Source: an uncultured Candidatus Saccharibacteria bacterium
GTDB taxonomy: Bacteria > Patescibacteriota > Minisyncoccia > Phycocordibacterales > UBA5272
Assembly (NCBI GenBank): GCA_964635125.1
Contig: CAZWMQ010000001.1
Span: 211,272-275,271, forward strand
Reading direction: 5' to 3'
DNA length: 64,000 nt
Below the pieces are notes generated by a model. That model had not been told where the DNA came from, searched no databases, and saw only the letters and a list, made by a program, of their open reading frames with translations. The position numbers and the translations under genes are program-made. Positions 1 through 64,000 of this stretch are shown here, piece by piece; the stretch's first letter is position 1; every line of letters starts with the position of its first letter.

Positions 1-108
1 AAAGCCGGAAAGCCCGAAATGTATGCCAGCTTTGAAGTTATGAAAAAATATCAAAAAGAATTACAAGAGGTAGCAGGGAAGGCAGGGTTACAGAAGACAG
101 TGGAGAGA
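1..108 (+). CDS. 3' end of an unidentified gene (partial, begins upstream of window)
   Basis: Frame 1 is open from the window edge to TAG at 106-108 (...ASFEVMKKYQKELQEVAGKAGLQKTVER*). No recognisable motif. Confidence 0.3.
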
Positions 109-148
109 TAGGGAAATGTATTAAGAAATAAATATAATAATAAGTAAT

Positions 149-355
149 ATGTTAGGTTATATAGCTTTAGGAATTTTAATAGCAGCTTATGCTTTTCTAT
201 ATTTTAAAAAAGAAAATGTATTTTTTATAGTAAATTTAATAGCTTCGATAGGACTTTGCATACATTCAATTCTAATTTCTGATATTCCAAATTCTATAGC
301 TAATGGATTTATAGTTTTAGTACTTGGATTAACTATAATTCGAAAGTATAAATAA
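149..355 (+). CDS. small hydrophobic membrane protein (hypothetical)
   Basis: 68-aa ORF with two predicted TM helices. No recognised family. Confidence 0.3.
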   Translation: MLGYIALGILIAAYAFLYFKKENVFFIVNLIASIGLCIHSILISDIPNSIANGFIVLVLGLTIIRKYK

Positions 356-451
356 TTTAAAAAATAGAAACATAACAAAAATCTAATGTGTAAGCATTAG
401 CTTTTTGTTTTTAATTCTTTATATTTTGGTGTATAATAGAATAGTAAAGAT

Positions 452-541
452 ATGGAAGAATTACAAAAAGAAATCAAAGAGTTTATAAATGAGCGTGATT
501 GAAATCAATTTCATAATCAGTTATTAAAAATATTGGAATAA
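452..541 (+). pseudogene. MazG-like NTP pyrophosphohydrolase N-terminal fragment (truncated)
   Basis: ATG at 452. Translation with TGA=Trp is MEELQKEIKEFINERDWNQFHNQLLKILE*. It matches the conserved first helix of MazG/YpjD-type proteins (EFxxERDWxQFH) but stops at TAA after 29 aa. Confidence 0.35.
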
Positions 542-573
542 ATATAAAAAATATCTAGTCTGGTAAATGTAAG

Positions 574-2848: not shown

Positions 2849-2882
2849 TACGCCTAATTATAGCATAATAACAGGTTAAACT

Positions 2883-3719: not shown

Positions 3720-3855
3720 TCATTAATTATTTTTTTTATTCCTTTCAGTTTTGGTCGGTTATTTTGTGAGATTTTTTGTTGAAATAAAATACCTAGAAAA
3801 ATATTTAGTTTCTTTCTTCCCTTTAACTCCAAAATCTGCTATATTTAATCAAAAT

Positions 3856-5478: not shown

Positions 5479-6432
5479 ATGACTTATAGAGATGAAGATT
5501 TTAAAAATAATGATAAGACAAAATACACTTATCCTGCATATGAAGACCTCTTAAAAAAAGAAGTGGAGGCTAATTTGCTATTGTCTGATGAAGAAATGAA
5601 AGAAATAGCCGAAGAAGAAATTAAAAATATAAATATTCAAAAAGAAAATCTTTGGCAAGAAATGAGCGCAATTCTTGATAAGGATAAAGAGGAAGAAGAA
5701 AAACCTAAAGCCTTAATCTTAGAAATTGCTTCTGGAGCTGGAGGAGATGAATCATCACTTTTTGCCGCCGAGCTTGCGCTTATGTATCAAAATTTTGCTT
5801 TAAAAAATAAATGTAGCTTTGAAAAATTAGATGAATCAATCTCGGATGTTGGTGGATATAAAGATGTATCTTTTGAGATTAAAGGAGTAAGAGCTTGGGA
5901 TATATTTAAATATGAAATGGGTGTACATCGTGTGCAACGTGTGCCAGATACAGAGAAGAATGGCCGAGTGCATACTTCAACAGTGACAGTAGCCGTCATG
6001 CCAATTCGAAAAATAAAAAAGATAACTATTAATCCAGCAGATATTGAAATGGAGACATCACGAAGTGGTGGCGCAGGCGGACAAAATGTAAATAAAGTTG
6101 AAACGGCTGTTCGAATTATTCATAAGCCCACAGGGATTGCTGTTAAATGTACAGTCGAAAGAAGCCAGTTAAAGAATCGGGAAAAAGCGATGGAAATGTT
6201 ACAAGCCAGACTTGAGCAGATTGAAGAAGAAAAATTTGCTCAAGAAAACTCTGACAATAAAAGAGATCAAGTTGGAACTGGCGATAGGAGTGAGAAGATT
6301 AGGACTTATAATTATCCGCAAGATAGGATTACCGATCACCGAATTAAAGAATCTTGGCACAATTTGCCTAAAATCATGTCTGGCGAAATGGGGGAAATAG
6401 TTGAAGCCCTTCAAAATTATAAAGGTGAATGA
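5479..6432 (+). CDS. prfA: peptide chain release factor 1
   Basis: GGQ motif ([17 protein letters not shown]) and an RF1-type PxT tripeptide context (RVPDTE). Confidence 0.85.
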
Positions 6433-6525
6433 GGAAGTGAGGAGGAGGAATAATTATCAAATTTCTTATTTTTAGAGAAAATTATTTTCTTAACATTCAA
6501 TTCAGAAATTTGTTATAATAGAATT

Positions 6526-7294: not shown

Positions 7295-8281
7295 ATGAAA
7301 ATTAAACTTTCTTTTAAAAATTTATTTACAGCTACTAGATTTCGCTTAGATTTAATTGCTGGAATATTTGTAATTTTTATATTGTTTACTTTTTCTTATA
7401 TAGTTTATAATTTATTAACCGAAGATATTATTTTTCAAATTTCTCCAGTTTTTCGGTATTTAGAAAATCAGAATAATTTTAATCCAGGTAGTTTTTTTGG
7501 AGATTTGCAAAAACAAACTTTATTTTTATTGGTCGTCTCAGATACTATTATTTTCATAATTTCAATGGTCTTTTTTGATCGTATGGTTAAAAGAATGCTT
7601 AAGCCAATTGAATATGTAACTAAATTACAGCAAAGTTTCGCTTCAAATGTATCTCATGAATTACGGACACCGTTATCAATTATGAATATGCGAGGAGAAA
7701 TATTAATGAGTAAAATTAAAAAGGGAGAAAACAAAAACGATATTATAGATAATAATTTTATTCCAGAATTCAAAGAAGGGGTTTCAGTTATTTTAAGTGA
7801 AGTTAGTAATTTAAGTAATATCTTAGATGACTTATTATTTGAAGCTAGAATTAAATATTCCGAAGACAAAAGTGTGGCAGTAAATATTAATGAATTAAAG
7901 GATTTGATTTATAAAGTCTATAATAATCAATCTTATCTTAAATCAAAAGATGTTCGTTTCGAAGTATTAAATAAAATTAATGATTCTAACAAGAGTATTA
8001 AAACAAATACTTTACATATCGAGAGAATTTTTAATAATTTAATTTCTAATAGTTTTAAGTTTACAAACTTCGGCTTAGTAAAAGTGATTTTAGAAGAATA
8101 TAAATTATATAAGAATAACTATTTAAAAATAATAATAGAAGATACAGGTGTTGGTATTAAGGAAGAAGATTTGAAAATGGTTACTAATAGATTTTATCGT
8201 GGCAAGAATATTGAAAATGAAGTTTCTGGGAGTGGAATAGGTTTGGCTATAGTGGAAGATATTATTAAGAAATATAATTGA
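7295..8281 (+). CDS. sensor histidine kinase
   Basis: Two N-terminal TM segments, H-box SNVSHELRTPL and G-box DTGVGI...GSGIGLAI. It sits immediately downstream of the response regulator. Confidence 0.75.
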   Translation: MKIKLSFKNLFTATRFRLDLIAGIFVIFILFTFSYIVYNLLTEDIIFQISPVFRYLENQNNFNPGSFFGDLQKQTLFLLVVSDTIIFIISMVFFDRMVKRMLKPIEYVTKLQQSFASNVSHELRTPLSIMNMRGEILMSKIKKGENKNDIIDNNFIPEFKEGVSVILSEVSNLSNILDDLLFEARIKYSEDKSVAVNINELKDLIYKVYNNQSYLKSKDVRFEVLNKINDSNKSIKTNTLHIERIFNNLISNSFKFTNFGLVKVILEEYKLYKNNYLKIIIEDTGVGIKEEDLKMVTNRFYRGKNIENEVSGSGIGLAIVEDIIKKYN

Positions 8282-8357
8282 GATTTTAAAATTAAGAGTA
8301 AAGAAAATAGTGGTACAATTATAGTTATAAGTAAGATACCGATTCTTTCAAATTAAT

Positions 8358-10097
8358 ATGGATATTTTAAAAGAATTTTTAAAAAGTAAAAAAATAGAAT
8401 TTAGTATAAAGATTGAAGACTTAGAAATAAATAGCGAAGATACTAGCTTATTTAAAATTATCCCAGAAATTATTATTTATCCTAAAAATAAATTTGAGAT
8501 TGCTGAGCTATTAAAATTCATCAATAATCATCGAGGAGAGAATTATAATCTAGTCTCTAGATCTGCCGGAACAGATATGTCTGGAGGGGCCATTGGAAAC
8601 TCTATTATTCTATCAATGATAAAATATTTTAATCATATTATTCAGATTAATAAGGATGAGGCTTTCGCTATAGTTGAGCCAGGTGTATATTATCGGGATT
8701 TTGAATTAGAAACTTTAAAGCATAACTTATTATTACCAAGTTATCCTGCCTCTCGTGAGATTTGTACTGTCGGGGGAATGGTAGCCAATAACTCCGGAGG
8801 TGAGAAAAGTTTAATTTATGGAAAAACCGAGAAATATATTTTAGAGCTAGAAGTTGTCTTAGTAAATGGAGAAATTATTAATATTACACCTTTAACGGAG
8901 TATGAGTTAAAGAATAAATTAGATTCTCTAGATAAGAATTCTTTAGAATATAAAATATATAGTAAAGTTTCAGAATTAATTAATAATGAAAATAATCAAA
9001 CTTTAATTCAAAAGAACAAGCCACAGGTTACTAAGAACTCGGCTGGATATTATTTATGGAATATTTTAAGAGTTGAGAAAGGGGAAAAGATTTTTAATCT
9101 AAATAGATTAATTACAGGATCCCAAGGGACTTTAGCTATTATTACGAAGATTAAATTTAAATTAATCACTCCAAAACCGAAATCAATTATGCTTTTGACT
9201 TTTATTAGAAATTTGAAAGACTTAGGTAAAGTTCGTGAGATAGTTTTAAAAGGAGCTCCAGAGAGTTTTGAAAGTTATGATAATCAGACTTTTAAAGTAG
9301 CGATGAAATTTCTCCCAGCATTTTTAAAGAAAATTTTTAAAAGAAATAAAAAAGATAATCGTAAGATAAGTTTTCTAAGATTAGCGATATCATTTTGGCG
9401 AGAGTTTTATATGTTGATTACTTTTGGGATGCCAAAATTATTTTTAATTACTGAATTTACTGGAGATGATATTAACGAGATTAAGGAAAGAGCTAAGAGG
9501 ATTGAAGTTGAGTTGAGAGAGAGTTTTTTAAAGGGAAAGATTAAATCCAGATTAATAGAAAGTGATTTTGAAAAAGAGAAATATTGAACCATACGAAGAG
9601 AGAGTTTTAATTTATTAAGACAGAAAGTCCGTGGTTATCACACAGCTCCATTTATTGATGATATTATTGTAAGAGGGGAAAAATTAGAAAGCTTTTTAAT
9701 TGAATTAATTCCAATTTTAAAGAAATATAAATTACTTTATACTATCGCCGGACATGTTGGAGATGGGAATATTCACATTATACCTTTAATGAATTTTAAT
9801 AACAAAAGTATAATTAATAAAGATATAGAAATAATTAGAAATTGTAGTCAGGAAGTTTACAATTTAATTCATAAGTTTAAAGGTTCAATTACTGCTGAGC
9901 ATAACGATGGCTTAATTCGGACTCCATTTTTATATGAAATGTATGATAAAGAAATATTAAAAATGTTTAGAGAAGTTAAGAATGTTTTTGATGAAAGAAA
10001 TATTTTAAATCCGAATAAGAAAGTACCGAAGTTTGATGATTTTCAGAAAGAATTTGAAAATAATTTAAAATATTTAAAGTTTAGAGAGCAAGAATAA
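8358..10097 (+). CDS. FAD-linked oxidase (GlcD / D-lactate dehydrogenase-like)
   Basis: FAD-binding PCMH-type N-terminus (RSAGTDMSGGAIG...CTVGGMVANNSGG) and FAD-oxidase C-domain (GDGNIHIIPL, AEHNDGLIRT). One in-frame TGA at 9585-9587 joins track ORFs 8358-9587 and 9789-10097. Confidence 0.7.
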
Positions 10098-10930: not shown

Positions 10931-11091
10931 TTTTTATATATTTAATTGGTTAATAGAGACTTCAGTTCTAAAAACTCTATTAACCAATTAAAAGGAGTTA
11001 AAGAACAATAATTTTCATATATTATCATAATATATTAAGGTTGTCAAGCAAAAAGTCTTTATTTTATATGTTAAATTTAAATTATAATTAT

Positions 11092-12168
11092 ATGAAAAAT
11101 GTAGCTATTAATGGTTTTGGAAGAATTGGGCGAGCTTATTTAAAATTAGTCTTGAGTGATAAAGTGGTAGAAGAGAATTTAAATATTGTGGCAATTAATG
11201 ATCTGGGTGATTTAGATAATTTAATTTATCTTTTAAAGTATGACACAGTTTATCGTCGTGATATTTTTAAAAGCATATCTAGTAGAGTGGTGAGTGATAA
11301 TGAGAAATATTTAGTAATTGAATTTATTGATAATAGTAAAAAAGAAATTCGATATATTTCGGAGAAAGATACTAGTAAATTTATTCAAAATAAGATCTGA
11401 GGTAATTTAGGAGTAGATATTGTAGTGGAGTCTACTGGATTATTTATTAGTGCGGATAAAGCTTATTTTCATATTGAAGCTGGGGCTAAGAGAGTGGTAA
11501 TCACTGCTCCTACGAAAGATTTAAAAGATGCGAAGCGAGTAGCCGACACAGTCTTAATGGGAGTTAATGAAGAATATTTAAAGAAAAATATAATCACTAG
11601 TAATGCTTCTTGTACCACTAACTCTATTTCTCCGGTAGTGGCTATTTTAGATGAGACTTTAGGAATTGAGAAAGCAGTTCTTAATACAGTTCATTCTTAT
11701 ACTGCTTCGCAAAAAATTGTCGACGGTCCAGATAATAAGAATTGACGATTAGGTAGAGCTGGAGCTCAGAACATAATTCCTTCAACCACTGGGGCGGCAA
11801 TTGCTTTAACTAAAGCCTTTCCTAAATTAGATAGTTTATTTGACGGTATTTCAATCCGAGTTCCAACTGTAGCTGGAAGTATTGCTGATCTTACTTTTGT
11901 TGCCAAAAGAGACACCACAGTTGAAGAAGTTAATCGTATTTTAAAAAATGCTTCCCAAACTGAGAAGTGAAAGAAATTATTAGCCGTGACCGATGAACAA
12001 TTAGTTTCTTCAGATATTTTAGGATTAAGATTTGCTAGTATTGTGGACTCCTTAAACACTAAAGTAGTCGGTGGAAATCTAGTAAAGGTTTTAGCTTGAT
12101 ATGATAATGAGATAGGATACACTAATACTTTAGTAGAGCATACGATGAAAGTAGCAAAAATAATTTAA
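11092..12168 (+). CDS. gap: glyceraldehyde-3-phosphate dehydrogenase
   Basis: NGFGRIGR and SNASCTTN. Four in-frame TGA codons at conserved Trp positions (KIWGNLGVD, DNKNWRLGRAGAQNIIPSTTGAA, VLAWYDNEIGY). Confidence 0.9.
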
Positions 12169-12172: not shown

Positions 12173-12490
12173 ATGAATTGGCTCATACCTTTATTTATTT
12201 TAATATTTTTTGAAGGTATCGCTGATATTTTAGCTAAGTATTGGTCATTAAGGGGGGGGTGATGGTTTGCAATGTTAGCCTTAATTGCTTACTTAGTCGC
12301 TAATTCTTTTTGGTTATTTGCTTTAAAAAATGGATCTGGCTTAGCAAAAGGGGCAGTGATATTTTCCATATCTTCAGCCTTAGTCGCTATATTACTCGGA
12401 GTGTTTTTATATAATGAAGATTTAACTAAGATTCAATATTTAGGAATTTTATTTGGTGTAATTTCGCTTATTTTAATTTTTTGAAAATAG
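12173..12490 (+). CDS. SMR-family small membrane transporter (EmrE/ArnE-like)
   Basis: About 105 aa with 4 TM helices and a conserved membrane-embedded Glu (IFFEGIADIL). Two TGA-Trp codons. It contains a G8 homopolymer. Confidence 0.55.
12252..12259 (+). repeat. poly-G (G8) homopolymeric tract inside a CDS
   Basis: aGGGGGGGGt in an otherwise roughly 30% GC genome, immediately followed by TGA TGG. Confidence 0.9.
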
Positions 12491-15600: not shown

Positions 15601-15635
15601 AATTAATCTAATTGTGTTATATTTCCATAATTATT

Positions 15636-17093
15636 ATGAGTGATTTTGATTTTAAAATTATTAAAAAATCTATTGAAGCTCCGCTTGCTAGAGTCGGAAT
15701 TATTCACACTCCACATGGAGATATTGAGACTCCAGCTTTTATTCCAGTTGGAACTAAAGCTACCATTAAAAGTATCTTGATTGAGGATTTTGAAAAATAT
15801 GTTGGAGCGGAAGCTCTGCTATCTAATACATATCATCTTTATCTTGAGCCAGGCGAAGAGATTGTTAAGTCTCAAGGCGGATTCGCTAAAATGATGAATT
15901 ATAATGGGCCAACTTTTACAGATTCGGGAGGGTTTCAAGTATTCTCACTCGGTGCGGCGATGGGAGTTGGAGTATCGAAAATATCTAAAAGAGAGGATTT
16001 AACTAATGAGAATATCGAAAAGAATTTGGAAAATAAAAATAATAAATTTAAGAATTTTATTTTAAAAAATAAATATTTATTTTTAGAATTATTAATCTCT
16101 CTAATGGTTGGGTTTATAGTAAGGGCCAATAGTGTAGATATGAATTTACTTTTAAATAGTGTGATTATGATTACTATTTTCTTAATAATTGATAATTTAT
16201 TTTTCAAAAAGTATCGCTTAAAAGATAAATTATTATTTAAAGAGTTAGAAAATAAAGCAAAATCTCTAGTAAAGATAACCGAGAATGGAGTCGAGTTTCG
16301 AAGTGTTTTTGATGGGTCGAAACATTTCTTTACTCCTGAGAAGTCAATGGAGATTCAACATGATCTTGGTGGAGATATATTTTTCGCTTTTGATGAATGT
16401 ACTTCACCCTTAGCAAATTATGATTATCAAGTGGAAGCTTTAAATAGAACTCATCGTTGAGCGAAGCGGTCTTTAAAAAGGCATCTGGAATTAGGGAAAA
16501 GTACAGCTACTGGAGAAAATCAAGCTCTCTATGCCGTAGTTCAAGGTGGAAAGTTTGACGAGCTTCGTAAAGAAAGTGCCAAAGTCTTAAGTGAAATGCA
16601 AGTTGCTGGAGTAGGGTTTGCTGGATTTGGAATTGGCGGGAGTTTTACGAAAAAAGATATGGCAAAAACCGTTAAGATTGCTACTGAAAATCTTCCAGAA
16701 GATAAACCAAGGCATCTTTTAGGAATTGGAGAAATCGAGGATTTATTTTTAGGTATTGAATATGGAATTGATACTTTTGATTGTGTCACTCCAACTCGGA
16801 TCGCTAGGAATGGTACCATCTATACCAAGAATGGAAAAATTAATTTATTTAATGCTAAATACAAAAAGGATTATAGCCCAATTTGTGATGATGAAAGTTG
16901 TTATACTCATCAATACACTAAGAGTTATTTAGCACATTTATTTCGCTCGCATGAAATGATTGCCTCAACCATTGCCTCAATTCATAATTTACATTTTATT
17001 GTGCATTTAGTGAAAGATATTCGGCAAAGCATATTAGAAGATAGATTTTTAGAATTTAAAAAAGAATATCTTAAGAATTATAAAAACAATTAA
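15636..17093 (+). CDS. tgt: queuine tRNA-ribosyltransferase with a ~105-aa internal insertion
   Basis: PVGT, TDSGGFQVFSL, EKSMEIQHDLGGDI, FDEC and RTHRW(TGA at 16458-16460)AKRS. Asp/Zn region VTPTRIARNG...C..C.C..H. Confidence 0.85.
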
Positions 17094-25211: not shown

Positions 25212-25601
25212 ATGTCATCAATATTCACTAAAATTATAAATCGAGAGATTCCAGCGGATATTTTCTATGAGGATGATAAATATATTGCGATCTTAGATAT
25301 TAATCCAATTCGAGATGGGCATATTTTGGTAATTCCTAAAAAAGAAACAGATTATATTTTAGATCTGTCTGAAGAAGAATATTTTGATCTAATGAAAATG
25401 TCTCGTAAAGTCACCGAGAAATTAACTAACAAATTAGAAGCAAAGACTGATCTAAAAAGAATTGCCATGGTAGTAGAAGGATTACAAGTTCCTCATGTCC
25501 ATGTTCATTTAATACCTTTATATAGTGACGACACAGGTCTCGCGATTGGGAAAAAGAATAAACTTACCATGGAAGAAGTTAAGCAGATTTTGTTTAATTA
25601 A
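25212..25601 (+). CDS. HIT-family (histidine triad) hydrolase
   Basis: HILVIPK and the histidine triad VPHVHVHLIP. Confidence 0.8.
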   Translation: MSSIFTKIINREIPADIFYEDDKYIAILDINPIRDGHILVIPKKETDYILDLSEEEYFDLMKMSRKVTEKLTNKLEAKTDLKRIAMVVEGLQVPHVHVHLIPLYSDDTGLAIGKKNKLTMEEVKQILFN

Positions 25602-25623
25602 TATTTTTATTTATAATGAGTCT

Positions 25624-32893: not shown

Positions 32894-32987
32894 AGCTTAA
32901 ATTTTGTTAAATAAAAACCATTTTAAAAATTTAAATTAAGTGGTTTTGTTTTTATACAAGTGTATTTATATATGTTATAATTTTAAT

Positions 32988-38950: not shown

Positions 38951-39154
38951 CTTTATTATATTAATTATGATATATTTAAAGTTATATTGACGAGATGCTT
39001 ATCTTCTTTCCATCAGGTTTTGAGTTTTTGGGTGACTCAAGTCAATAATAATTTCGAAATTATTATTAATAAAATTTAAAAAACTTCTTAATATTACACT
39101 ATATTTTTAGTTTTTTTATTGTCTGTATTTTTTAATATCAACCTTTTATTTTAT

Positions 39155-42100: not shown

Positions 42101-42421
42101 AAATCTCAAAATGGAGGCCAGAGATTTGGAGAAATGGAAGTCTGAGCACTTGAAGGTTATGGAGCAGCGCATACCTTAAGAGAGATGTTAACTATTAAAA
42201 GTGACGATATTGTTGGTCGAACAGATACTTACAATAGTATTATTAAAGGAGAACAGATTAAGAAGCCAAATGTCCCCGCCTCTTTAAATGTTTTATTAAA
42301 TACTTTACGAGGATTATCTTTAGATATAATTCCACTAATTAAAGATAATAAAAGAAATAAATTCAACAAAGAAGAGATTTATTTACAAGAAGATTTAATA
42401 GAATTAAAAGAAAATTTATAA
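39155..42421 (+). CDS. rpoB: DNA-directed RNA polymerase beta subunit
   Basis: Conserved blocks throughout. In-frame TGA at 42143-42145 is the universal Trp of [22 protein letters not shown] stop at 42419-42421. Confidence 0.95.
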
Positions 42422-42451: not shown

Positions 42452-45400
42452 ATGAAAACTTTAGATACAACTAATTTCGATGCTCTACAAATAAAAATAG
42501 CTTCTCCCGAAGTAATTCGAGCTTGAAGTTTTGGTGAAGTTACTAAACCTGAAACTATAAATTATCGAACTGGGCGAAGCGAGAGAGCTGGGCTTTTCGA
42601 TGAGAAAATATTTGGTCCAGAAAAAGATTATGAATGTTATTGTGGTAAATATAGAAGAATTCGTTATAAAGATATTATCTGTGAGAAATGTGGTGTCCAA
42701 GTTACTAAATCAATCGTCCGAAGAGAAAGAATGGGTCATATTGAATTAGCTACTCCAGTTGCTCACATTTGGTTTTTAAGAAATATTCCTTCTAAGATAG
42801 CTTTAGTCTTAGGCGAAGCATCTGGACAGGTTGAGAAAGTTATTTATTTTGCTAATTATATTATCACTAGAGTTAATTTAGCGGAAAAAGAATTATTATT
42901 AAAAGATTTAGATAGTGAATTTAAAGCAAAAATTAAATCCGCTACTGATGATAAGACTAAAGAAAAATTAAAAGAATTATTCCAAGCAACTAAGAGAGAA
43001 ATCGATGAGATTAGACCGAATAAAATTTTAGATGAAGTTCTTTATCATAGATATGCTATGCGATATAGTTCGGCTTTTGAAGCTAGTATTGGACCGGAAG
43101 CAATTTATAATATTTTTAAAGAGATTAATTTAGATGAATTAGAAGCTTCTATTTTAAAAAGTTTAGAGAAGATTTCTTCATTAGATAGGTCTAAGCAAGA
43201 AAAAAGACTTTCATTAATTAGAGCTTTTAAAGTTTCAGAGATTAGACCAGAGTGGATGTTTCTAACCGCATTACCTGTAATTCCACCAGGAATTAGACCA
43301 ATGGTTACTTTAGAAGGAGGCAGATATGCCACCTCAGATGTAAACGATCTTTATCGAAGAGTAATTAATCGTAATAATCGTCTTTTGAAATTAAAAGAAA
43401 TTAATGCTCCAGATGTTATCTTAAGAAATGAAAAAAGAATTCTTCAAGAAGCGGTAGATGCTTTATTTGATAATTCTATGCGTAGAGGACAAGGGGCAAC
43501 TACTATTATTGGGCAAAGAAGACAATTAAAATCTTTAGCAGATAGTATAAAATCCAAATCCGGTCTATTTCGTCAAAATCTTTTAGGAAAGAGAGTTGAT
43601 TATTCTGGGCGAAGTGTAATTGTTATTGGACCAGATTTAGCCCTTGATGAGTGTGGATTACCTAAATATATGACTTTAGAGTTGTTTAAGCCTTTTGTAA
43701 TTTCTAAATTATTAGAGCGAGAATTTACTTTTAATATTCGAGGAGCTAATAAATTAATCGAAGATGGAATTCCAGAAGTTTGGGAAATCTTAGAAGAAGT
43801 AATTGAAGGTAAATATGTATTACTTAATCGAGCTCCGACTTTACACAGACTAGGTATTCAAGCTTTCAGACCTAAAATGATAGAAGGAAATGCAATTCAA
43901 CTTCATCCATTAGTATGTACAGCTTTCAATGCTGACTTTGATGGAGATCAGATGGCGGTGCATTTACCATTAGGTGAGGAAGCTCAGAATGAGGCTAAAA
44001 ATATTATGGCTTCGAATAAAAATTTATTAAAGCCAGGTTCTGGGGATTCAATTGTCAATCCAAGAATGGATATGTTACTTGGTTGTTTTTGGCTGACCAC
44101 TGAAGTTGAAGGATTAAAAGGAGAAGGAAAATATTTCGGTTCTCCAAATGAGGCAATCACAGCTAGTGAATTTGATTTAGTAGATATTAGAGCCAAGATA
44201 CAAGTAGTGCCATCTTCAAAAGAGAAGTATGCTAGGTTTAATGGAGAAAGATTTCAAACTACAGTCGGAAAACTTCTATTCAATTCAATTTTCCCAGATG
44301 ATTTTGAGTATATTAATGAGCAAGTTGGTATTAATTATATGAATAAGATTGTCGATCGTATAATTAATCAATATGGTTTTGAAAAAGCTCCAAAAATAAT
44401 TGATAAGATCAAATCTTTTGGTTTTAAATATGCTACTATTTCTGGAACAACTTGGGGAATTAATGCCGTTAGAGTTCCAAAAGACAAGAAAGAAATTGTT
44501 GACAGAGCTAAAAAAGAAGAAGAAAAGATAGTTGAATATTATGAACAAGGATTATTATCTGAAGAAGAAAGATACACTAAGGTAGTTGAAAATTGGTTAA
44601 AAACTAGAAAAGAAATTGAAGGCATCATGCCAACTGAATCTATAGATAAATATGGCTCAGTGTATAACTTAGTCACTTCTGGTGCCAGAGGATCTATGAA
44701 GCAATTAATACAAATTGGAGGAATGAAAGGTATCATTGTTAATTCCTCAGGAAAGAATATTGATTTTCCAGTAATTTCTTCCAATATAGAAGGACTTTCT
44801 CCAATTGAATATTTTATTACAACTTATGGAGCTCGTAAAGGAACATCTGATACCGCTTTAAAGACTGCTGAAGCTGGGTATTTAACTCGAAGATTGGTTG
44901 ATGTGGCTCAAGATATTATTATCACTGAAGCAGATTGCGGAACAAAGAAAACTGAATTAATGACTGCTGAGAATGTAATGGGTATTGAAATTCCATTAAT
45001 AAAAAATATTAGAGGCCGGGTCTTAGCTCAAGATTTAATTGGTAAAGATGGTAAAGTCTTATTCAAGAAGGGTTCTTTAATCAAGAAGACTGATCTTAAG
45101 AAGATTGAAGAAGCAGAGATTAAAGAAGCTCATATATATTCACCATTAACTTGTGAATCATTGTTTGGAGTTTGTCAGAAATGTTACGGAGAAGATTTAG
45201 CTCGTAATGAATTAATTAAAATTGGTGAGGCGGTTGGAGTAATTGCTGCTCAAGCGATCGGAGAACCTGGGACACAATTAACTATGAGGACTTTTCACTC
45301 TGGAGGTGTGGCTGGAGCTGATATTACTCAAGGGCTTCCAAGAGTAGCTGAAATCTTTGAGCGAAGAAATCCTAAGAATCCAGGAGTTATTTCATTATCG

Positions 45401-46057
45401 AATGGAGAAGTAGTAGAAGTCAAGAAAGATAAGAAAGATAAGAAGATTGTAGTAATGAGTGATGATGATGGATCTTATGATCAAGCTAAGAAAAAAGGTA
45501 TGAAAATAGAATATGAGATGTCATATTTTAGAAGAGCGATTGTTAAAGTCGGAGATAAAATTAAGAAAGGTCAAGCTTTAACGGACGGATCATTAAATAT
45601 TGAAGAATTATATGATTTAGCTGGTAAAGAAGTTTCTGAGAAGTATATTGTTAATGAATTAAATAAAGTTTATGAACTTCAAGGAGCATCTATTTCTCGA
45701 AAGCACATGGAATTAATTATTAAGAGAATGTTATCTCGTATTAAGATTAAAGATGTCGGAGATACTAACTTTACCCAAGGTGATATTGTTGAGATTGCTG
45801 ATTTTAAGATTGAGAATGAGAGAGTTAAAGCTGAAGATAAAAATATAGCCAAAGGAATAAATTTAATTTTAGGAATTTCAGATGTTGCTTTAACCACTAA
45901 TTCTTGGTTATCGTCAGCTTCATTCCAGCATACAACAAGAGTTTTAATAAACTCATCAACTCGAGGACAAATTGACAATTTGCGAGGTATAAAGGAGAAT
46001 GTAATTATTGGTAAATTAATCCCAGCCGGAACAGGGGTGAAAAATAAAGAGGAATAA
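42452..46057 (+). CDS. rpoC: DNA-directed RNA polymerase beta' subunit
   Basis: ATG at 42452. TGA at 42524-42526 is the conserved Trp of IRAWSFGEV. Zinc finger CYCGKY...CEKCGV, and NADFDGD. Confidence 0.95.
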
Positions 46058-46507: not shown

Positions 46508-48244
46508 ATGAATCCTAAAGATCAAGTTAAACAATCTCTCTCTATCTTAGATGTAATCTCTACTTATATTAAAGTTGAGAAAGCTGGCTCTCAATATAAA
46601 GCTCGTTGTCCATTTCATAATGAGAAAACTCCGAGCTTTTATATATCGATGGATCGTGGAACTTATCATTGCTTTGGTTGTGGAGAGCATGGGGATATAT
46701 TTTCTTTTGTAGAAAAAATGGAATCAGTACCATTTTATGAAGCTTTGACTATTTTAGCTGAGAGAGCTAATGTGAAGTTAACTCCCTTTAATAAAGAAAA
46801 AAAAGATAAAGAGGAGGATTTGATTAATTTACTTAGAGCCACTAATCAGCATTATATTGATAATCTTGAAAAGAGTGCCGAAGCCAAACTTTATCTTAGC
46901 GAGCGAGGATTAACCAAGGAGACAATTGAAAAGTTTAAGATTGGTTATAGTGTTGGTGGAACGGAAGGATTTCGAGATTTATTTATTAATTTATCTAAAG
47001 CTGGATTTGGCATTGAGAGTATGTTAAAGAGCGGGATGATAATTAAAAAAGACGGGGAAGATAAATATTTTGATAGATTTCGAGGAAGAATTATGTTCCC
47101 AGTTAAGAATACTTTTGGGAATATTGTTGGCTACTCAGCTAGAATTCTACCTAAATACGATGATGGAAAAGTTGGCAAATATATTAATTCACCAGAAACA
47201 GAAATATATCATAAGAGTAAGATATTATTTGGCTATGATTTAGCTAAGAATAGTATCGCCAAGAGCAAAGAAGTAATCTTAGTAGAAGGGCAAATGGACT
47301 TAATTATGTCTCATCAAGTTGGGATTACTAATGTTGTAGCTACTTCAGGAACTGCGGTAACCGAGGAACAGATACAAATCCTTAAAAGATTCGCTGATAA
47401 ATTATTACTGTCTTTTGATCAAGATTCAGCTGGAGAAACTGCCATGAAGAAATGTGCGATGTTAGCGATCAGCGGAGGATTAGATGTTTATGTAATTCCT
47501 AAGAAAAATGGAGTAAAAGATACTGCTGATCTAATCAAAGACTATGGCGGGGAAGAATGGCAGAAATTAATTGGTAGACGATTACCATTAATAGAATATT
47601 TAGTTAATAAAATTTTTGATGATATAAAGGATAATCGAGAAAGGAATAATGTTGTGAGGAAAGAAGTTTTGCCGTATTTAAGAATATTTCTTAGTGATAT
47701 GGAGAGAGCTTATTTTATAAATTACATAGCTAGTAAATTGAATATTAGTGAGGTAGATATTATAAATGATATTAAAAGAATTAAAGTAGAAAATATAGAA
47801 AAAGATCAAATTGAAGAATACAAGGAAAATTCATCTAAATTAATTCGTTTAGTTAAAAATATCTTAGCTATTTTAAAATGAAAAAATATAGAGACAAATA
47901 ATTTTAAACAAGATTATTATTCTGGAGCTCAGACAATAGACGAGAAAGAATTAGACTTAAACTATTTAAAAAGATTTGAAGAGACTGAATTAGAATTACC
48001 AGAAGAACTTATTGAAATTGAGATAGTGAAGATAGAAAAGGAGACTTCAACTAATTTACTTTACAAAGATCACCCTAATAAATTTATTAATGAAATGTTG
48101 TTAGATTTAGTTAAAGTTTTTAAATTAGAAATTATAAGAGAAGAGATTGATAATCTAAATAAGTTATCTGACAAGGGAGATGAGATTTTAAAGAAAATAA
48201 ATTCCTTACAACAAATAAAGCATAAGATTCAAAATCACTCTTAA
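46508..48244 (+). CDS. dnaG: DNA primase
   Basis: CHC2 zinc finger CPFHNEKTPSF...HCFGCGEHGD and Toprim EVILVEGQMD. TGA at 47879-47881 joins ORFs 46508 and 48026. Confidence 0.85.
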
Positions 48245-51638: not shown

Positions 51639-53147
51639 TTATTTCATTTTTTCTTTAATAATTTCCGTAAATAACTGTGGATTTCCAGATCCACGAGATT
51701 CTTTCATAGCTTGACCAACGAAGAACATGACTAATTTCTCATTCCCAGCTAATAGATCAACTCAAGGTTTTGGATTAGCGATAATTACTTTCTCTATTAT
51801 TTTAGACAATTCTTCAGTATCGTTTTTCTGAATTAATCCTTTCATCTCAGCAATTTCGCGAGCAGTCATATCATTATCAGTCATTTCAAGCATAGAGTCA
51901 TATGACAATTCACTCATCATATAATTAATTAAATCTTTCGCTCCACGGCTCGACAATTCATTATTATCTAACATCTCCATTATTTCTCGAAAATCTTCTT
52001 TATCAATAAAGTGGACTAAGTTCTCATCATTAGCACCTTGAACAATACTCAAAACATCACTACAGATATAATTAGTGGCTAAATTTAATAATTTATTTTG
52101 CTTTTTTAATTCATAATCATGACTTCCAACTTCTTTTTTAATCTCAGTAAAATAATTTAAAAGTTTAAAATTATTTAATAATATTTCTACATATTCATCT
52201 TTAATATTAATTTCTTTGAAATCTTCTCGGATTAATTCTAAACTAATCGGTAAATTATTTCTAATCTCTTCTAAATCATAAATACTATGTAAATATAGCT
52301 TTGGAAGATCTGGATCAGGGAAATATTTATAATCTTCTGAAGATTCTTTTTTTCTTTGGCTAACTGTGATTCTTTTATTTTCTTCAAATCCACGAGTCTC
52401 TTGAATTATTTCCTCACCTTTGCCAGCTTCTAGTAATTCAATATGTCTCTTAGTCTCATAACGAACAGAGTCTTCCACGGACTTAAAGGAATTAATATTT
52501 TTAACTTCAACCTTAGTGCCATATTTATTTTTATCTTTAGAAACTGAGAGATTAACTTCGATTCGCATTTGACCTTTACTCATTTCAGCTTCACTAGCAT
52601 CTAGCATTCTTAGAATTAACTGAAGTTCTCTAGCAAAATTACTACAAGCTTTCGCGGCGACTTCGACATCATTGAAAGTCTCTGTTTCGGTAACTAATTC
52701 CATTAATGGAACTCCAGAGCGATTGAAATCTATTAAAGTATCACTTGCTTTGTCATGAGTGGATTTGGCGGTGTCTTCTTCTAAATGTATACGAGTTAGA
52801 GGTCAATTGTGAATTCTTCCACCGGAAACAATTGGATATTTATATTGAGTTAATTGATAAGCCTTTGGCATATCTGGGTAGAAATAATGCTTTCGATCCC
52901 ACTCGGTAAAGTTCGCAATATTAGAGTTAATATAAAGTCCGATCTGTATCATTTTCTTGATGGCTTCAGAGTTTAAGGTTGGTAATGATCCAGGTTGAGC
53001 GGTACAGATTGGGCAAATATTTTTGTTAGGAGTTTCTTCTAAGGGGACATTAGAGCAGGAGCAGAACATCTTGCTATTAGTTTTAAGTTCAGCATGAATC
53101 TCTAACCCGATCATTATAAAGTAGTCATTATTTGTAGTAGTTTCCAT
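51639..53147 (-). CDS. gatB: Asp/Glu-tRNA amidotransferase subunit B
   Basis: IGLEIHAELKT, FYPDMPKAYQ and TRIHLEEDTAK, with a C-terminal GatB/YqeY domain. Two TGA-Trp codons join ORFs 52803-53147 and 51762-52703 and extend to TAA at 51639. Confidence 0.85.
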
Positions 53148-57085: not shown

Positions 57086-58651
57086 TTATTTAATTAAAAA
57101 TTTGTCTAAGGCCCCACCATATTCTTTAAGATAGTTTCTGATTTGTTTTTTAGCTAAGGAAGTGTAAGCAAAATCTAATCATTTCCTACTTGGCTTAGCA
57201 TCATGTTTAGTGATTATTTCTACAATATCACGATTTTTTAATTTAGTATTTAGTGAAACTATTTTTTGATTTATGATAGCTTTAGAAATATGGTTGCCAA
57301 TATCTGAATGAATATAATAAGCAAAATCTATAACTGTGGAGTTTTCAGGTAATTCTAAAATGTCTCCTTTTGGAGTATGTATAAATAATTTTTTATCTAA
57401 AATATTTTCTTTAATATCTTTCAAAAATTCATTATTTAGAGTCGTTTTTTCTATTTGTATTAAGTCTTTAGTTCAGGAGATCTTATCTTCAATATTTTTA
57501 GCTTTTCTTTTATCATATTTAGAATCAGTTTTAGAATTACCTAATTCTTTATAAAATAAATGTGAAGCAATACCATACTCTGCTTCCTCGTGCATTTTTT
57601 GAGTTCTAATTTGTACTTCAAAAGTCCCACCTTCGCCATCAAAGACCGTGGTATGTAGAGATTGATAACCATTTGGTTTTGGTATGGCAATATAGTCTTT
57701 AAATCTTCCCGGAACTGGTTTATAGAGGCCGTGAATCACTCCAAGCACTTGATAACACATGTTAATATCTAGAACTATAATTCTCATCGCTGCAATATCG
57801 TATATCTTTTGTATATCTCAATTATGCTTTTTAAGTTTCTCATAAAGAGAATAGAGATGTTTAAGTCGATAATCTATTTTTAGAAATTTAATTTCAAAAA
57901 TTCGTAATTCTGAACGAACTTTTTTTAATATATTTAAGAGGTAATTCTCAGAAGAGGATTTATTCTCTTCAAACATGACTTTAACTTTTTCATAATCTTC
58001 CGGATAAGCATAAGGGAAAGCATAATCCTCTAATTCACTTTTTAATTTTCCCATACCAATACGATCAGCAAGTCTCGCATGTATTTCCAGAGTTTCAATA
58101 GCAATTCTTTTTCTTTTGTCCTCTCTTAGATACTGTAAAGTTTGCACATTGTTTAATCGATCGCAGAGTTTAATTATCACCACCCGTATATCATTAGATA
58201 TAGCGATAAAGAATTTTCGCATACTCTCGACATGTCTTTCCATACCTTGATATTTAATAGTTCCAAGCTTAGTTACTCCTTCAATTAAGAATAAAATATT
58301 TTTTCCGAATTCTTTATCTATTTCTTCTTTTGTAATTTTAGTATCTTCTAAGACATCATGTAATAAACCAGCAACAATAGTCTCAGTATCCATATTTTGT
58401 TTAGCGATGTTAATAGCAGTATAGACTACATGATTAAAATAGGGCTCGCCACTTTTTCGCAATTGTCCCTCATGAGCTATCTTAGCAAAATTATAAGCTT
58501 TCTTAATTATTTCTTTATCACTTTTAGATATAGATTTATTCTTTGGTATAGATTTAAATATGTCTTCGGTGATCGGAGTTTTATAAATATCAATATTAGT
58601 TATAGTAGATTTTTCTATGTCAGTTGCTCCCAATTCATTTTTAGATGTCAT
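57086..58651 (-). CDS. rel: (p)ppGpp synthetase/hydrolase Rel (RelA/SpoT family), short form
   Basis: HD domain (HDVLEDT), synthetase ([10 protein letters not shown]...[16 protein letters not shown]) and TGS. Two TGA-Trp codons join ORFs 57818, 57473 and 57179, and the frame ends at TAA 57086. It lacks the usual C-terminal ZFD/ACT region. Confidence 0.85.
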
Positions 58652-58950: not shown

Positions 58951-61167
58951 TTACTTTTTCTCTAATTTATGAGGATTATGATTTGGACAAGTTTTATTCG
59001 AGCATCGCTCCGGAATAGTCTTAGTTCCTTCCATCATTAATTCTCCACATATCTTACAGTATGCTCCAGTTGGGCGAGCTTTAATAGTATTTTTACAATC
59101 TGGATAATTAGAACATGCATAAAATACTCCATATCTCCCTCGTCGCTCTTCCATATAACCAGTCTCACATTTATTACATTTTACTCCAGTGTTTTTCTTT
59201 TGCTTCTCTTCCTCAGAAGTCTCAATATATTTACATTTAGGATAATTAGAGCAGGCGATGAATTTACCATATCTACCGGTTCTTTCGATTAATTTACCTT
59301 GTTCACATTTAGGACAAGTCTTACCAGTGTCTTTTGGGCCCTCTAATTCTTCACCATCTAAAGTCCTGGCCCCATCACAATCTGGATATCTTGAGCAAGA
59401 GTAGAATTTACCATTTTTAGATAGTTTAATAATCATTTTAGATTTACATTTTGGACAACGAATATCTTTGGGAGCCTCTCCAAAGTTATTCTGCTTTTCA
59501 ATTTTATCTTTGGCTTTAAGATCTTTCTCAAATGGTTTATAGAAATCAGTTAAGAGTTTGAGATAGGTTAATTTACCATTAGCAATCTTATCTAAATTAT
59601 TTTCCATTTCCGAAGTGAAGGAGTCTGAAATGTATTTAGCGAAATTTTCTTCTAAGAAATCTGAGACTACTTCTCCGGTATCAGTTGGGAAAAGAGTCTT
59701 ATTCATCTTCTCAACATAACCACGGTCCTCAATTGTTGAAATAATTGAAGCATATGTGGATGGTCGACCAATATCTCTTTTTTCTAATTCTTTAATTAGA
59801 CTGGCTTCACTATATCTTCCTGGGGGAGTGGTGGCTTTCTCAATTGAATTAATAGCATACAGCTTTAAATCATCCTTAAGAGATAATTTAGGTAAAGTTA
59901 TATCTTCACCTTTACCATGTGGATCAATCGCTAATCAACCATTAAATATAACTACGGAGCCATTTACGGAAAAGTCTGGATAACTCTTCTCCTGCTTTAT
60001 ATTAGCTGTAATTTTAGTTCTTAATAACTCAGCATCTCGCATCTGTGAAGCGACTGTTCGCATAAAGATTAAGCTATAAAGTCTCTTCTCGTCCGGAGAA
60101 TTTCCAAGATTGCTATTATTAAAGTGAGTTGGGCGAATCGCTTCGTGAGCTTCTTGAGCATTTTTAGATTTAGTTTTGTATTGTCTTATTTCTAAATATT
60201 CTTTACCATATTGATTATTGATAAAGTCTGAAATCTCTTTAATCGCGACTCCGGCTAAATTAGTTGAGTCAGTTCTCATATAAGTAATATATCCTTTTTC
60301 ATATAATTTCTGAGCGAGTATCATGGTTTTCTTTGGAGAATATCCCAATCTTGAAGAAGCAGTTTGTTGTAGGGTGGAAGTGGTAAAAGGGGCTTTTGGA
60401 GAGAGTTTAGCTTTAGTCTCTTTAATGTCTTTTACAAACCAGCTCCCAGCTTTACCTTTAATGACTATTTCTTTAGCTAAACTGGTCGCTTTAGCCTCAT
60501 CTAACTCTGGATTAAGACCTGGTTCAAGAGAACAGTCTAAGATTAATTTATATTTCTTAGATTCTTTCATTTTCCCAATGGTTTCCACTTCGGCAACAAT
60601 ATTAAAGTATTTTACCGGAATAAAGTTTCTTATTTCTCGCTCTCTTTCCATAATAATTCTTAGAGCAGGAGATTGGACTCTACCAGCGGACAATCCATAG
60701 CGAACTTTTTTTCAGATTATACCAGACAATCCATAACCGACTAAGCGATCAAGCACTCTGCGAGCTTCTTGAGCTTCTTTTAAATTTATATCAATCTGTC
60801 TTGGATTTTTTAAAGCTTCAATAATAGCTTCTTTAGTTATTTCGTGGAATACAGCTCGTTTAGATTTCTTCAGATCACAAGCCTCTTTGACATGCCAGGC
60901 AATGGCTTCTCCTTCACGATCGGGGTCGGTGGCTAAGATAGTTTCCGTAGCTTTATTGGCTAAAGATTTAATCTCAGCAATAACTTTCTCTTTACCTTTT
61001 ACTACTTCATAATGAGGAATAAATCCATCTTCAATATCAATGGCTTTCTTATTAGACTTTGGTAGGTCACGAATATGTCCAATTGAGGCTCTAACCGTAT
61101 AATCTTTACCCAAATATTTCTCGATAGTTTTAGCTTTAGAAGGTGATTCGACAATTAATAATTTCAT
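58951..61167 (-). CDS. topA: DNA topoisomerase I
   Basis: Toprim MKLLIVESPSKAKTI and the catalytic region. C-terminal C4 zinc ribbons. Two TGA-Trp codons join ORFs 60712, 59935 and 58951. Confidence 0.9.
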
Positions 61168-61303
61168 AAATAATTAAATAGATTAAAATAAATAGTTCCC
61201 ATTTAACTTAACTCAATTAGATTATTTTTGCAAATAATTGTTAATTTAGAAGTTAAATTAATTATTTTTTTATTATAACATAGGAGAAAAGTTATTATTA
61301 AAA

Positions 61304-61789
61304 TTAGTATAAGATGTTATTATGAAAATTAAATAAAATAGATAAGCATATAAGAATAATAGATATAATTATAATAATTTTATATTTCTTTTTAAATATT
61401 AAATATATTAAAATCAGAATAATCATGTTGAATATTATGAAAAAACTTTTGTATTCATTAGATACAAAAAATGCTTCCGAAGGATGTTCATAGGAGAATG
61501 GAGGGAATACAGAGCTTTTTGGTCCAAAAACGATCCAATTTACTAAAAAAGTAGGAAGAATTATAAGAATTGAGAGTATTTTTTTAAAGAGTGGGTCAAT
61601 CTTATTTAATAAATTATTTCATCTATATACATTATAAAACAGTAATGAAGTGATAAGTATTACAATTAATATGATTTTAATATTTGAGTAATCATAATTG
61701 CTATCTAGTTTGGTAGTAACTAAGATAATAGTTATAATACTAGCAATATAAATTACGATATTTAATAAACCATATAGTATATTTTTCAT
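61304..61789 (-). CDS. hypothetical multi-TM membrane protein (161 aa)
   Basis: Found only when TGA is read as Trp (one in-frame TGA). About 4 TM helices. Absent from the standard-code ORF track. Confidence 0.4.
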
Positions 61790-61811
61790 ATATTTAAATT
61801 ATACCATTAAT

Positions 61812-64000
61812 TTATTTAGCATATTCTGTAGCTTCAGCAAACTTGATAGATAATAATTTTGAACATCCTTCAGCTCCCACGGTTACTCCATATAAGACAT
61901 CACATTGATTCATAGTCTCGCGATTGTGAGTAATTACTAAGAGTTTAGATCTTTCGGCTAATTTTTTAATCATTTGCCCGTATTTGCGAGCATTAGCTTC
62001 ATCGAGGGCGGCATCAGTCTCATCAAGCACCATAAATGGTGGATGATTAATTGAGCTCATAGCGAAGATTAAAGCAATAGAGGAGAGAGCTCTTTCTCCA
62101 CCGGATAACATTTGTAAATCTTTCACTTTCTTTTGTGGAAGATTAATTTGTATATCTACTCCTGGTTCACCCTCATGTTCACTTTCAACTTCTAGCCCTT
62201 TCTCATCGGTTTTATTTTTAATAATATTTTTCTCAATAGCTAAGTTAGCTTTTCCACCAGGAAAAACTTCAGCGAAATAATTATTAAAGTTCTGATTAAT
62301 CTGATTAAGACCAGTATTAAAGTCAGAGAGTAAAGTGTTCTTAAGATCAATAATTAGATTTTCTAGGTTAGACTTAGAATGTTCCAGATCAGCGATCTCT
62401 TTGGTTAAGAATTCATCTCTTTCATTTAGAGATTCGTATTCATCTAAGACTTCTCCAGCATTTAAGACACCGGACTCTTCAATCCTAATCTTACTTCGCT
62501 CTATCTTTCTTCTTAATTCGCTTTGAGGTAATTGAGAGATTGATTTCTCTTCCTCTGATAATTCATTTAGATTAAAGTTTTTATATTTTAGAGATTTTTG
62601 TCCCAATAAGACACTCATTTCTCCTAATAAATTATTAAAGTCAGACTCTTCTTTCTCTAACTCAACTCTCTTTAGATTATGAGTCTCTCTTTGCGAATAT
62701 AGCTTTTCTAGATTTAATTTCAATTGTAATATCTCATTATCTAATTTATAAGTATGTTCTTTGGATTCAGTTTCTAATTTTTGCAATTCAGAGTTTTTAA
62801 TAGATAGTTTAGTTTCTATTTCTTGAATACTTTTTCCAACTTCTAATAAATTATTTTCTTTACTCTCTAAATCCTTTTTTAAGAGTTCAATATGTTCTTG
62901 ACTATTATCTTTCTCTTCTTGAATTTCTTCTTTAATTTCAGAATTATTTTCTTTAGTATCACCTTTAATTCTTTTTATAAAATCTTTTTCTCCGTAATTA
63001 GCTTTTTCAAGATTATTAGTTAATTCCAAATAATTCTTTTCTTGATTAAGTTTGAAAATATTTTCTCAGAGAATCTTACGATTATCTTCAAATTCTATCA
63101 AGTCCGATTTATTAATAATATATTTGTTTAAATTACTCTCTATGAAAGGATTAGTCTCACGAGTGTTTTCAAGATCTTTCCTAACTAAGAATTTTATTTC
63201 TAGATCTAGATTAATTTTTTCTTTATAGAGATTGTCTTTATCAAGATTAAGATCTCTTAATTTATCTTTTAAGTTATTAATTTCATTTTTTAGATTAGAT
63301 AAAAGAGGATTATTATTCTGATCTTGATTATTTTCACTCTCTTCTTGAAACTTTTTACTTCTTAATAAAGTGTGCAGTTTCTCTTCCTCAGTAGCAATGT
63401 TATTTTCAATATTATAGTCATTGATAATTTTCTTTTTCTCAGTTATATCAATATCTTCTTTACCTAAATATATTTTAAGCAGATCTGAAACTTGATTAAT
63501 CTCATCTTCTCTTTTTTCGAGTTCCTTAACTTGCTTACGGAGATAATTAAGGTGAGGCAGATTCTCTCGTCGATTAGACTCTATCTCTTTTAAATGCTCA
63601 CTTACTTTTTCTAATTTTCTAACTCCTTCTTTAATCCGGATATGATAGATTCTTAATCCTAGAGCATCTTCGATCATTTCTCTCCGTTCAATATTATTAG
63701 ACAATAAGATACGATCAGCTTCACCTTGATTAACAATAGTATGCCCTGAAGCAGAAATATTAGCCATCGCTAATAATTCTTGAACATCTTTCAGGCGGAC
63801 CTTAGTTCCATTAATTAAATATTCACTAGCCCCGTCCGAATATATTTCTCGAGTTAGAATAATCTCATCCATAGCTAAGAAATTATTTAAGATAGAGTTA
63901 GACTCTTCTAAATTATTAAATAATTTATTGTCTATTTTCTTATTACTATTATCTAAGATCAAAGAGACCGAGGCCCTTGAAAGTGAAGATAACCTCGGAG
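61812..64000 (-). CDS. smc: chromosome segregation protein SMC (5'-partial, short form)
   Basis: C-terminal head with LSGGERALSSIAL and Walker B VLDETDAALD. The N-terminal region YSDGASEYLINGTKVRL and coiled coils are present. One TGA-Trp at 63066-63068 joins the two track ORFs. It continues past the window end. Confidence 0.85.

Follow-up and report, generated by a model that had tools for sequence, protein, structure and literature searches.

Until 2026, UGA was known to be read as Trp only in Bacillota, Pseudomonadota and Verrucomicrobiota, followed by Actinomycetota (PMC13462651), and a 2026 paper in Microbial Genomics still restricted it to these phyla. Within the Patescibacteria, UGA-to-Trp reassignment was described in April 2026 for the family JAKLIH01 of the order UBA6257 (Nucleic Acids Res, PMC13092985), and a gTranslate preprint of May 2026 assigned translation table 4 (UGA = Trp) to the genus GCA-2747955 and to one unnamed Minisyncoccia genome (bioRxiv 10.64898/2026.05.24.727570). 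Most genomes of these published lineages contain a tRNA(UCA), prfB is missing and 0% of the stops are UGA (PMC13092985 Suppl. Table 2; gTranslate preprint). Here, the use of TGA was analysed in a stretch of 64,000 nucleotides from an uncultured bacterium of the same phylum (assembly GCA_964635125.1, contig CAZWMQ010000001.1), which is called the window in the following. Its alignments indicate that UGA is decoded as Trp. While this reassignment was already published for the phylum in 2026, the lineage itself appears not to have been described before.

JAKLIH01 shares with the window the class Minisyncoccia, the reading of UGA as Trp, small A+T-rich genomes, 0% UGA stops and a reassignment that arose once, at the root of a small clade. 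However, it belongs to the order UBA6257 and the window to UBA9983_A, and UGA makes up 4–27% of the stops in its standard-code relatives compared to about 1% in the sister cluster of the window. None of the accessions of the JAKLIH01 clade occurs among the RpoB relatives of the window; the two are set apart by accession and taxonomy. The lineage of the window is not JAKLIH01, because its clade adjoins the family UBA5272 in the order UBA9983_A. The genus GCA-2747955 (family GCA-2747955) likewise belongs to UBA9983_A, reads UGA as Trp and has code-4 and code-11 genomes as close neighbours. It was compared by description only: the nearest GTDB species reach at most 84% RpoB identity to the window, while congeneric-looking pairs in this group show 93–95%, and the nearest GTDB cluster contains UBA5272, the namesake of a different family. 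As no GTDB species representative exceeds 84% in RpoB, it is unlikely that the window belongs to GCA-2747955. The unnamed Minisyncoccia genome of the same preprint could be this lineage.

Outside the phylum, the Mycoplasmatales and Entomoplasmatales (Bacillota) resemble the window in the reading of UGA as Trp, a low G+C content, the need for release factor 1 (RF1) only and a codon-capture scenario, but the Mollicutes lack peptidoglycan. Trp is encoded mostly by TGA in Mollicutes, whereas TGA is the minority codon in the window with 31%. The Gracilibacteria and Absconditabacteria (JAEDAM01) are Patescibacteria as well, use UGA as a sense codon and lack RF2. In contrast to the window, UGA encodes Gly in these organisms. 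The clade of the window probably represents an additional origin of UGA-to-Trp in the Patescibacteria.

TGA as a sense codon in the window

Open reading frames (ORFs) were called mechanically under two codes, and non-overlapping frames of at least 100 amino acids were kept. With TGA as a sense codon, 51 ORFs covered 91% of the window, while under table 11, with TGA as a stop, 61 ORFs covered only 80%. The G+C content is 28–32% throughout. Of the 50 in-frame TGA codons in the set with TGA as sense, 47 lie within credible genes and three within doubtful ORFs (Table 1). These 47 codons are carried by 22 of the 48 credible genes, next to 107 TGG codons in the credible genes, and table-11 calling breaks up 22 of the 48 genes. 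The credible genes end with TAA (42) or TAG (6). Hence, no stops other than UAA and UAG are required, and UGA is unused as a stop across all 48 genes, as in table 4.

The fragmented look of the table-11 calls is all that would speak for an artefact, that is, for sequencing or assembly errors, pseudogenes, selenocysteine or readthrough sites. Over 11,207, 8,584 and 3,109 bases, three independent Logan assemblies of different sequencing runs agree with the window at every base, and thus the TGA codons are not assembly errors. Furthermore, they lie specifically at Trp positions in 22 genes including rpoB and rpoC, and the pattern recurs in two sister species from other samples, in part at different sites. 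An artefact is excluded for all practical purposes. The protein P0003 from the NCBI assembly (311,572-bp contig), a 996-amino-acid fragment of RpoB, ends exactly at the TGA of the window.

Table 1. Genes and ORFs of the window with in-frame TGA codons, and the partner of the histidine kinase.
Gene or product	Position (strand)	In-frame TGA	Remarks
prfA (release factor 1)	5479..6453 (+)	6430-6432	Pfam PCRF + RF-1; models stop short of the TGA
OmpR-type regulator	6526-7281		Partner of the histidine kinase
Histidine kinase	7295..8356 (+)	8279-8281 (amino acid 329)	Within HATPase_c domain (amino acids 239-349); Pfam HisKA + HATPase_c
FAD-linked oxidase	8358..10097 (+)	9585-9587	Pfam FAD_binding_4 + FAD-oxidase_C; TGG in 2/2 related loci
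GAPDH	11041..12168 (+)	11398, 11743, 11968, 12097	All four Trp codons; no TGG
Small EamA-like membrane protein	12173..12490 (+)	12260, 12482 (penultimate codon)	Pfam EamA
Tgt (queuine tRNA-ribosyltransferase)	15612..17093 (+)	16458-16460	THR[TGA]AKRS
Hypothetical secreted or membrane protein, 206 amino acids	20377..20997 (+)	20656-20658	No family match
UvrA	21624..24332 (+)	23661-23663
TrhO-like protein (UPF0176 + rhodanese)	25525..26565 (+)	25990-25992	Pfam UPF0176_N, Rhodanese, Rhodanese_C
Hypothetical membrane protein	26531..27484 (+)	26591, 27113	No Pfam or NCBIfam match
LeuRS with NUDIX insert	28817..31735 (+)	12 TGA	10 TGG; includes QRN[TGA]IGKS and IN[TGA]CPSC
Conserved hypothetical membrane protein	32940..34520 (+)	6 TGA
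MltG/YceG	34614..35741 (+)	34710-34712	TGA in N-terminal transmembrane segment; Pfam YceG 172 bits
rpoB	39119..42421 (+)	42143-42145	GEMEV[W]ALEGYGAA; TGG in 43/44 related loci
rpoC	42452..46057 (+)	42524-42526	IRA[W]SFGE; TGG in 43/43 related loci
dnaG	46508..48244 (+)	47879-47881	Related loci: TGG 12/15, TTT 2
Doubtful ORFs	49687-50028 (-); 55278-55673	3 TGA
gatB	51639..53147 (-)	52803-52805, 51762-51764	TGG in 4/5 and 4/7 related loci, remainder Y, F or V
miaA	53152..54081 (-)	53314-53316	Variable region in PDB alignment; W of RQITW (53188-53190) is TGG
relA/spoT homologue	57086..58651 (-)	57818, 57473, 57179
topA	58951..61167 (-)	60712, 59935	TGG at both in one related locus covering them
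Hypothetical membrane protein	61304..61789 (-)	61619-61621	No family match
smc (5' part beyond window end)	61812..64000 (-)	63066-63068	Coiled coil; Pfam SMC_N on Logan calls

The residue encoded by TGA was read from two panels of homologues. For the first, one genome per GTDB species was scanned for RpoB, which gave 49 Patescibacteria loci with 10-kb flanks. Every protein of the window was aligned to these loci and the codon opposite each TGA was read off; the all-against-all codon comparison was made on non-overlapping longest ORFs only, which kept off-frame ORFs out. Trp, encoded by TGG, was in the majority at 24 of the 27 alignable TGA sites, while two sites were mixed and one showed Ala. 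For the second panel, 80 LeuRS genes of diverse bacteria were taken from metagenomes. The scan yielded one close relative (L056, 68% identity), its matches being driven by one conserved peptide pattern. W was dominant at 11 of the 12 TGA sites in LeuRS (80/80, 80/80, 79/79, 77/79 etc.), with F and Y as the sole alternatives, and this profile is like the one of the ten TGG sites of the same gene. In the first panel, TGG was found at the twelve sites in five to eight of the six to eight related loci covering each.

Solved structures gave a similar picture for several other proteins. The TGA of Tgt falls on a W (RTYRWALRS, MSLRWAKRS) in the Tgt of Thermotoga and of the E. coli type. Two of the RelA sites, 57473 and 57179, are W in all Rel structures covering them (3/3 and 2/2), and the third one (57818) is variable. 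In GAPDH, the TGA at 12097 lies at an invariant W (xWYDNE) and the one at 11398 adjoins a conserved W, with the other two at variable sites. The TGA of UvrA stands opposite Tyr (RGYxxxRFSFN) in three structures, which is an aromatic position and not Gly. In the conserved membrane protein at 32940..34520, TGG outnumbers every other codon at each of the six sites, with a clear majority at five (six to eight of eight to nine loci); at the sixth, four of nine loci have TGG and the remainder Tyr and Phe. The sites in the MltG transmembrane segment (W, Y, F, L or M in relatives) and in the SMC coiled coil (Ala or Val in two relatives) are variable, as are others in RelA, MiaA and GAPDH.

UGA could also stand for Gly (table 25), as in the Gracilibacteria and Absconditabacteria of the class JAEDAM01, given that the phylum is shared and that ORF size cannot separate tables 4 and 25. 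The alignments refute this. Gly is in the majority at none of the 27 sites, the twelve of LeuRS included, and occurs opposite TGA only in three single-sequence cells of both panels together. The alternatives to W are aromatic (F, Y), and the relatives have TGG at these sites, a single transition away from TGA. Since no TGA site is dominated by Gly and TGG is found there in the relatives, the aligned sequences argue for table 4 instead of table 25, and a reading as Gly is of negligible probability.

These results largely agree with an earlier note on the window, which had proposed table 4 and not table 25 from the letters alone; every alignment test points the same way and no site at a conserved Gly was found. 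Its count of at least 40 TGA codons stands, but its description of them as strictly conserved Trp positions was too strong: summed over all sites, about 30 are W-dominant, about six are at variable positions and about ten have no usable homologue. The codons it had named in RpoB and RpoC are exact in position, and the four in GAPDH, those in the QRN-W-IGKS and IN-W-CPSC motifs of LeuRS and the one in THR-W-AKRS of Tgt were all recovered. It was mistaken about RQIT-W of MiaA, where Trp is encoded by TGG and the TGA lies elsewhere in the gene. The continued use of TGG, the splitting of at least 20 genes by the standard code and the gain in coding density, a check it had suggested, were likewise seen.

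Phylogenetic position and a clade of three species

All 47 close RpoB relatives are metagenome-assembled genomes (MAGs) of Patescibacteria. Thirteen species form a cluster with 80.5–83.6% RpoB identity to the window and 81–95% among themselves, and the next tier reaches at most 69%. The cluster includes UBA5272 (DHTA01) and a MAG labelled Ca. Elulimicrobiales; among its genomes are JAXLZS01 (614-kb contig), JAYFPW01 and JBAXSC01. In GTDB, UBA5272 is classified as p_Patescibacteria; c_Paceibacteria; o_UBA9983_A; f_UBA5272 (PMC12455944 supplement). The gene order leuS, rpoB, rpoC, dnaG, rpoD, obg, gatB is common to the window and the sister species. The organism is an ultra-small member of the Patescibacteria (Candidate Phyla Radiation, CPR), class Paceibacteria/Minisyncoccia, order UBA9983_A, adjoining the family UBA5272. 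The window belongs to a clade of genus level, and the species cluster with UBA5272 is the sister of this clade. The phylum, which the earlier note had left unnamed, is the one already known for UGA as Gly.

A placement within the Mollicutes agrees neither with these relatives nor with the gene content. Pfam models identified an OmpR-type response regulator with a histidine kinase, YceG/MltG, a thioredoxin/DsbA-like and a DUF218/SanA-like protein in the window. Two PBP2-type transpeptidases, MraZ and RsmH are encoded on the contig just left of it and UppP/BacA just right of it. The view of the earlier note, a cell-walled bacterium capable of signalling and not a Mollicute, was thus confirmed by the RpoB relatives and the gene content. 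The protein that the note had called lytic-transglycosylase-like (26531-27484) matched no Pfam or NCBIfam model.

In the RpoB homologue search, proteins with 92% identity to the window were found in Logan assemblies DRR438454 and SRR10831808, and one with 91% identity, likewise cut at 996 amino acids, in SRR27197500. The table-11 gene calls on the respective contigs (L136, L137 and L138) are in pieces. Trp sites compared between the window and L136 were TGA in both (11), TGG in the window and TGA in L136 (14), the reverse (10) or TGG in both (25). In L136, 41% of the Trp codons are TGA, and none of its TGA codons is aligned with a codon of the window for another amino acid. Of about 49 Trp codons in L138, four (8%) are TGA, and one of these is the RpoB site of the window. 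UGA and UGG substitute for one another where Trp is encoded, within the clade as well as in comparison to relatives. The window, L136 and L138 were monophyletic in 100 of 100 bootstrap replicates of the RpoB tree and sister to 13 TGA-free species. The reassignment is common to at least three species and has a single origin on their shared branch.

The spread of TGA is not complete. The A-ending share of the other A/G codon pairs in the window ranges from 0.64 to 0.91, compared to 0.31 for Trp. Between the window and the sister species, Lys, Glu and Gln codons are essentially randomised with P(A given G) of 0.62–0.80 and P(A given A) of 0.70–0.83, while P(TGA given TGG in the sister) is 0.27 for Trp. 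Two readings would account for this: the split from the sister cluster long predates the reassignment, or UGG is the better decoded of the two codons.

TGA usage within the window is uneven. The region 574-4971 has no TGA and 14 TGG; it contains a Dam-type methylase, a restriction-enzyme-like gene, an N4/N6 methylase and ychF. This restriction-modification block may have been acquired recently from an organism with the standard code. No TGA and 15 TGG were counted at 35788-38898, 19 TGA and 24 TGG between 28 and 35 kb, and four TGA and no TGG in GAPDH.

Release factors, tRNAs and the proposed mechanism

The release factor gene of the window, prfA as stated in the earlier note, encodes RF1 with 376 bits for the NCBIfam RF1 model versus 223 bits for RF2 and a PxT-type motif. 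The only tRNAs in the window are tRNA-Tyr(GUA) and tRNA-Leu(CAA). By analogy with the well-studied table-4 lineages and the two published cases in Patescibacteria, we infer that a tRNA-Trp(UCA) reads both UGA and UGG and that RF2 (prfB) has been lost. Taken as a whole, the data are very probably best explained by UGA standing for Trp in this clade through codon capture, with such a tRNA and the loss of prfB.

Within this scenario, the wider family would have lost almost all of its UGA stops under strong A+T pressure (30% GC overall, 21% GC at third codon positions), and RF2 would thereby have become dispensable. A tRNA-Trp(UCA) could have arisen from tRNA-Trp(CCA) by mutation or duplication. 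With UGA read as Trp, TGG-to-TGA transitions would then pile up, a process that seems to be unfinished with TGA at 8%, 31% and 41% of the Trp codons in the three species compared to 64–91% of A-ending codons in other A/G pairs.

Several observations weigh against this account or limit it. The search for prfB covered the window and flanks of about 10 kb (about 74 kb of one genome); the gene was not found and RF1 is the sole release factor there. No tRNA-Trp with any anticodon was detected by ARAGORN and Rfam in the window, 10 kb of flanking contig and 138 fetched loci. Moreover, the low share of TGA could reflect inefficient decoding of UGA instead of a young reassignment. In the main mechanistic rival, UGA is read as Trp by a near-cognate tRNA-Trp(CCA) whose anticodon stem is shortened to 4 bp and not by tRNA-Trp(UCA). 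Such decoding was proposed for Ca. Zinderia and Fastidiosibacteraceae XS4, short-stem tRNA-Trp(CCA) occurs in many bacteria including Paceibacteria of the order UBA6257, and two of the four JAKLIH01 genomes are without tRNA(UCA) (PMC13092985). The modest TGA share of 8–41% is compatible with the lower efficiency of a short stem. On the other hand, tRNA(UCA) is present in most table-4 bacteria, including most published cases in Patescibacteria, and tRNA genes missing from MAGs usually reflect assembly gaps. Decoding by the short-stem tRNA is therefore considered improbable, although it deserves more weight than the other alternatives.

Two TGA codons lie just ahead of an annotated stop, namely, by six codons in prfA (6430) and by one codon in the EamA-like gene (12482). 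Sense and stop are undecidable at these positions, and both codons could in principle terminate. They would also suit an ambiguous or transitional code with RF2 retained and UGA acting as a weak stop or as Trp depending on the context. TGA as the minority Trp codon fits such a code, and the gTranslate preprint contains lineages with interleaved code-11 and code-4 genomes (bioRxiv 10.64898/2026.05.24.727570). Yet, LeuRS with twelve TGA codons, GAPDH with four, RpoB and RpoC are essential, and appreciable termination would be intolerable in them. No credible gene needs a TGA stop, and the sister clade is essentially without them, too. An ambiguous code is therefore quite unlikely.

In 509 pairwise comparisons of Trp codons with the window, the sister cluster shows not one TGA. 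TGA terminates two ORFs in 175 genes of this cluster compared to 21 in 313 in more distant families of the order (Fisher P = 0.006), but the sister counts come from the same approximately 14 orthologous genes in 13 species, which are not independent samples. Both TGA stops (L004 16939-17475 and L015 12453-12890) are located within an intrinsic-terminator hairpin, AAAAACGGCTCAATTTGAGCCGTTTTT, and in L004 a TAA follows four codons after the hairpin TGA. Apparent TGA codons in rpoB of L026 were rejected as they are masked N bases. In distant UBA9983_A families, prfB (RF2 with SPF motif) is found two genes downstream of rpoC (L047 19304-20002; L020, L027, L042, L024, L025, L021). The family of the window has dnaG, rpoD and obg downstream of rpoC instead and no prfB in that region. 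A syntenic deletion of prfB is nevertheless unsupported, as the outgroup neighbourhood is not conserved in the family of the window and its flanks are not the greA/lysS found left of the window.

It is tentatively suggested, with the odds somewhat against it, that the three species with 8%, 31% and 41% TGA represent a third independent UGA-to-Trp reassignment in the Patescibacteria that is in progress, and that their sister cluster of 13 species (family UBA5272) has already given up UGA as a coding as well as a stop codon and may lack RF2. If true, the sister cluster would be the intermediate with an unassigned codon which is predicted by codon capture and has rarely been observed.

Accompanying genes and meaning of the reassignment

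Four enzymes that modify tRNA anticodon loops are encoded in the window, namely, the TrhO-like U34 hydroxylase, MnmA (37029-38084), MiaA and Tgt. It is speculative that MiaA and the U34 modification could bear on the reading of UGA and UGG by tRNAs. Tgt contains an insertion of about 105 amino acids (about 15950-16270) with a hydrophobic, membrane-like stretch; around the insertion, the solved Tgt structures all align in two separate blocks. The catalytic core of LeuRS is separated from its editing domain by an inserted NUDIX hydrolase domain (Pfam PF00293, 38 bits, amino acids 262-336, about 29600-29825). Among close relatives, the length of LeuRS varies from 802 to 1095 amino acids, which shows that the NUDIX insertion is variable. 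Transketolase (13896-15600) is encoded by two genes for the N-terminal and the C-terminal half, with a faint Pfam match of the N-terminal half in the Logan calls. Split transketolases are common in CPR bacteria and archaea.

Two public assemblies (L053 and L054) cover the 8.5 kb left of the window with identical DNA and differing gene calls. One was called with TGA as sense, leaving LysRS, RsmH, GreA and PBP intact, and the other one with table 11, which gave two to three pieces. They were considered as two strains with and without TGA, which was rejected because the DNA is identical and only the code of the gene caller differs. The pair illustrates that databases hold both versions of such proteins. 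Fragmentation by table 11 also lowers completeness estimates and may be the reason why GTDB does not list the genome as a species representative.

Stop-to-sense reassignments are rare in bacteria, and the Patescibacteria are the only phylum known with tables 4, 11 and 25. What sets the present lineage apart is the early stage of its reassignment together with a UGA-depleted sister clade. The graded use of TGA beside a nearly UGA-free sister provides a natural series for comparing codon capture with the ambiguous-intermediate model. A further origin in another family would support a repeated predisposition of small A+T-rich CPR genomes to the capture of UGA.

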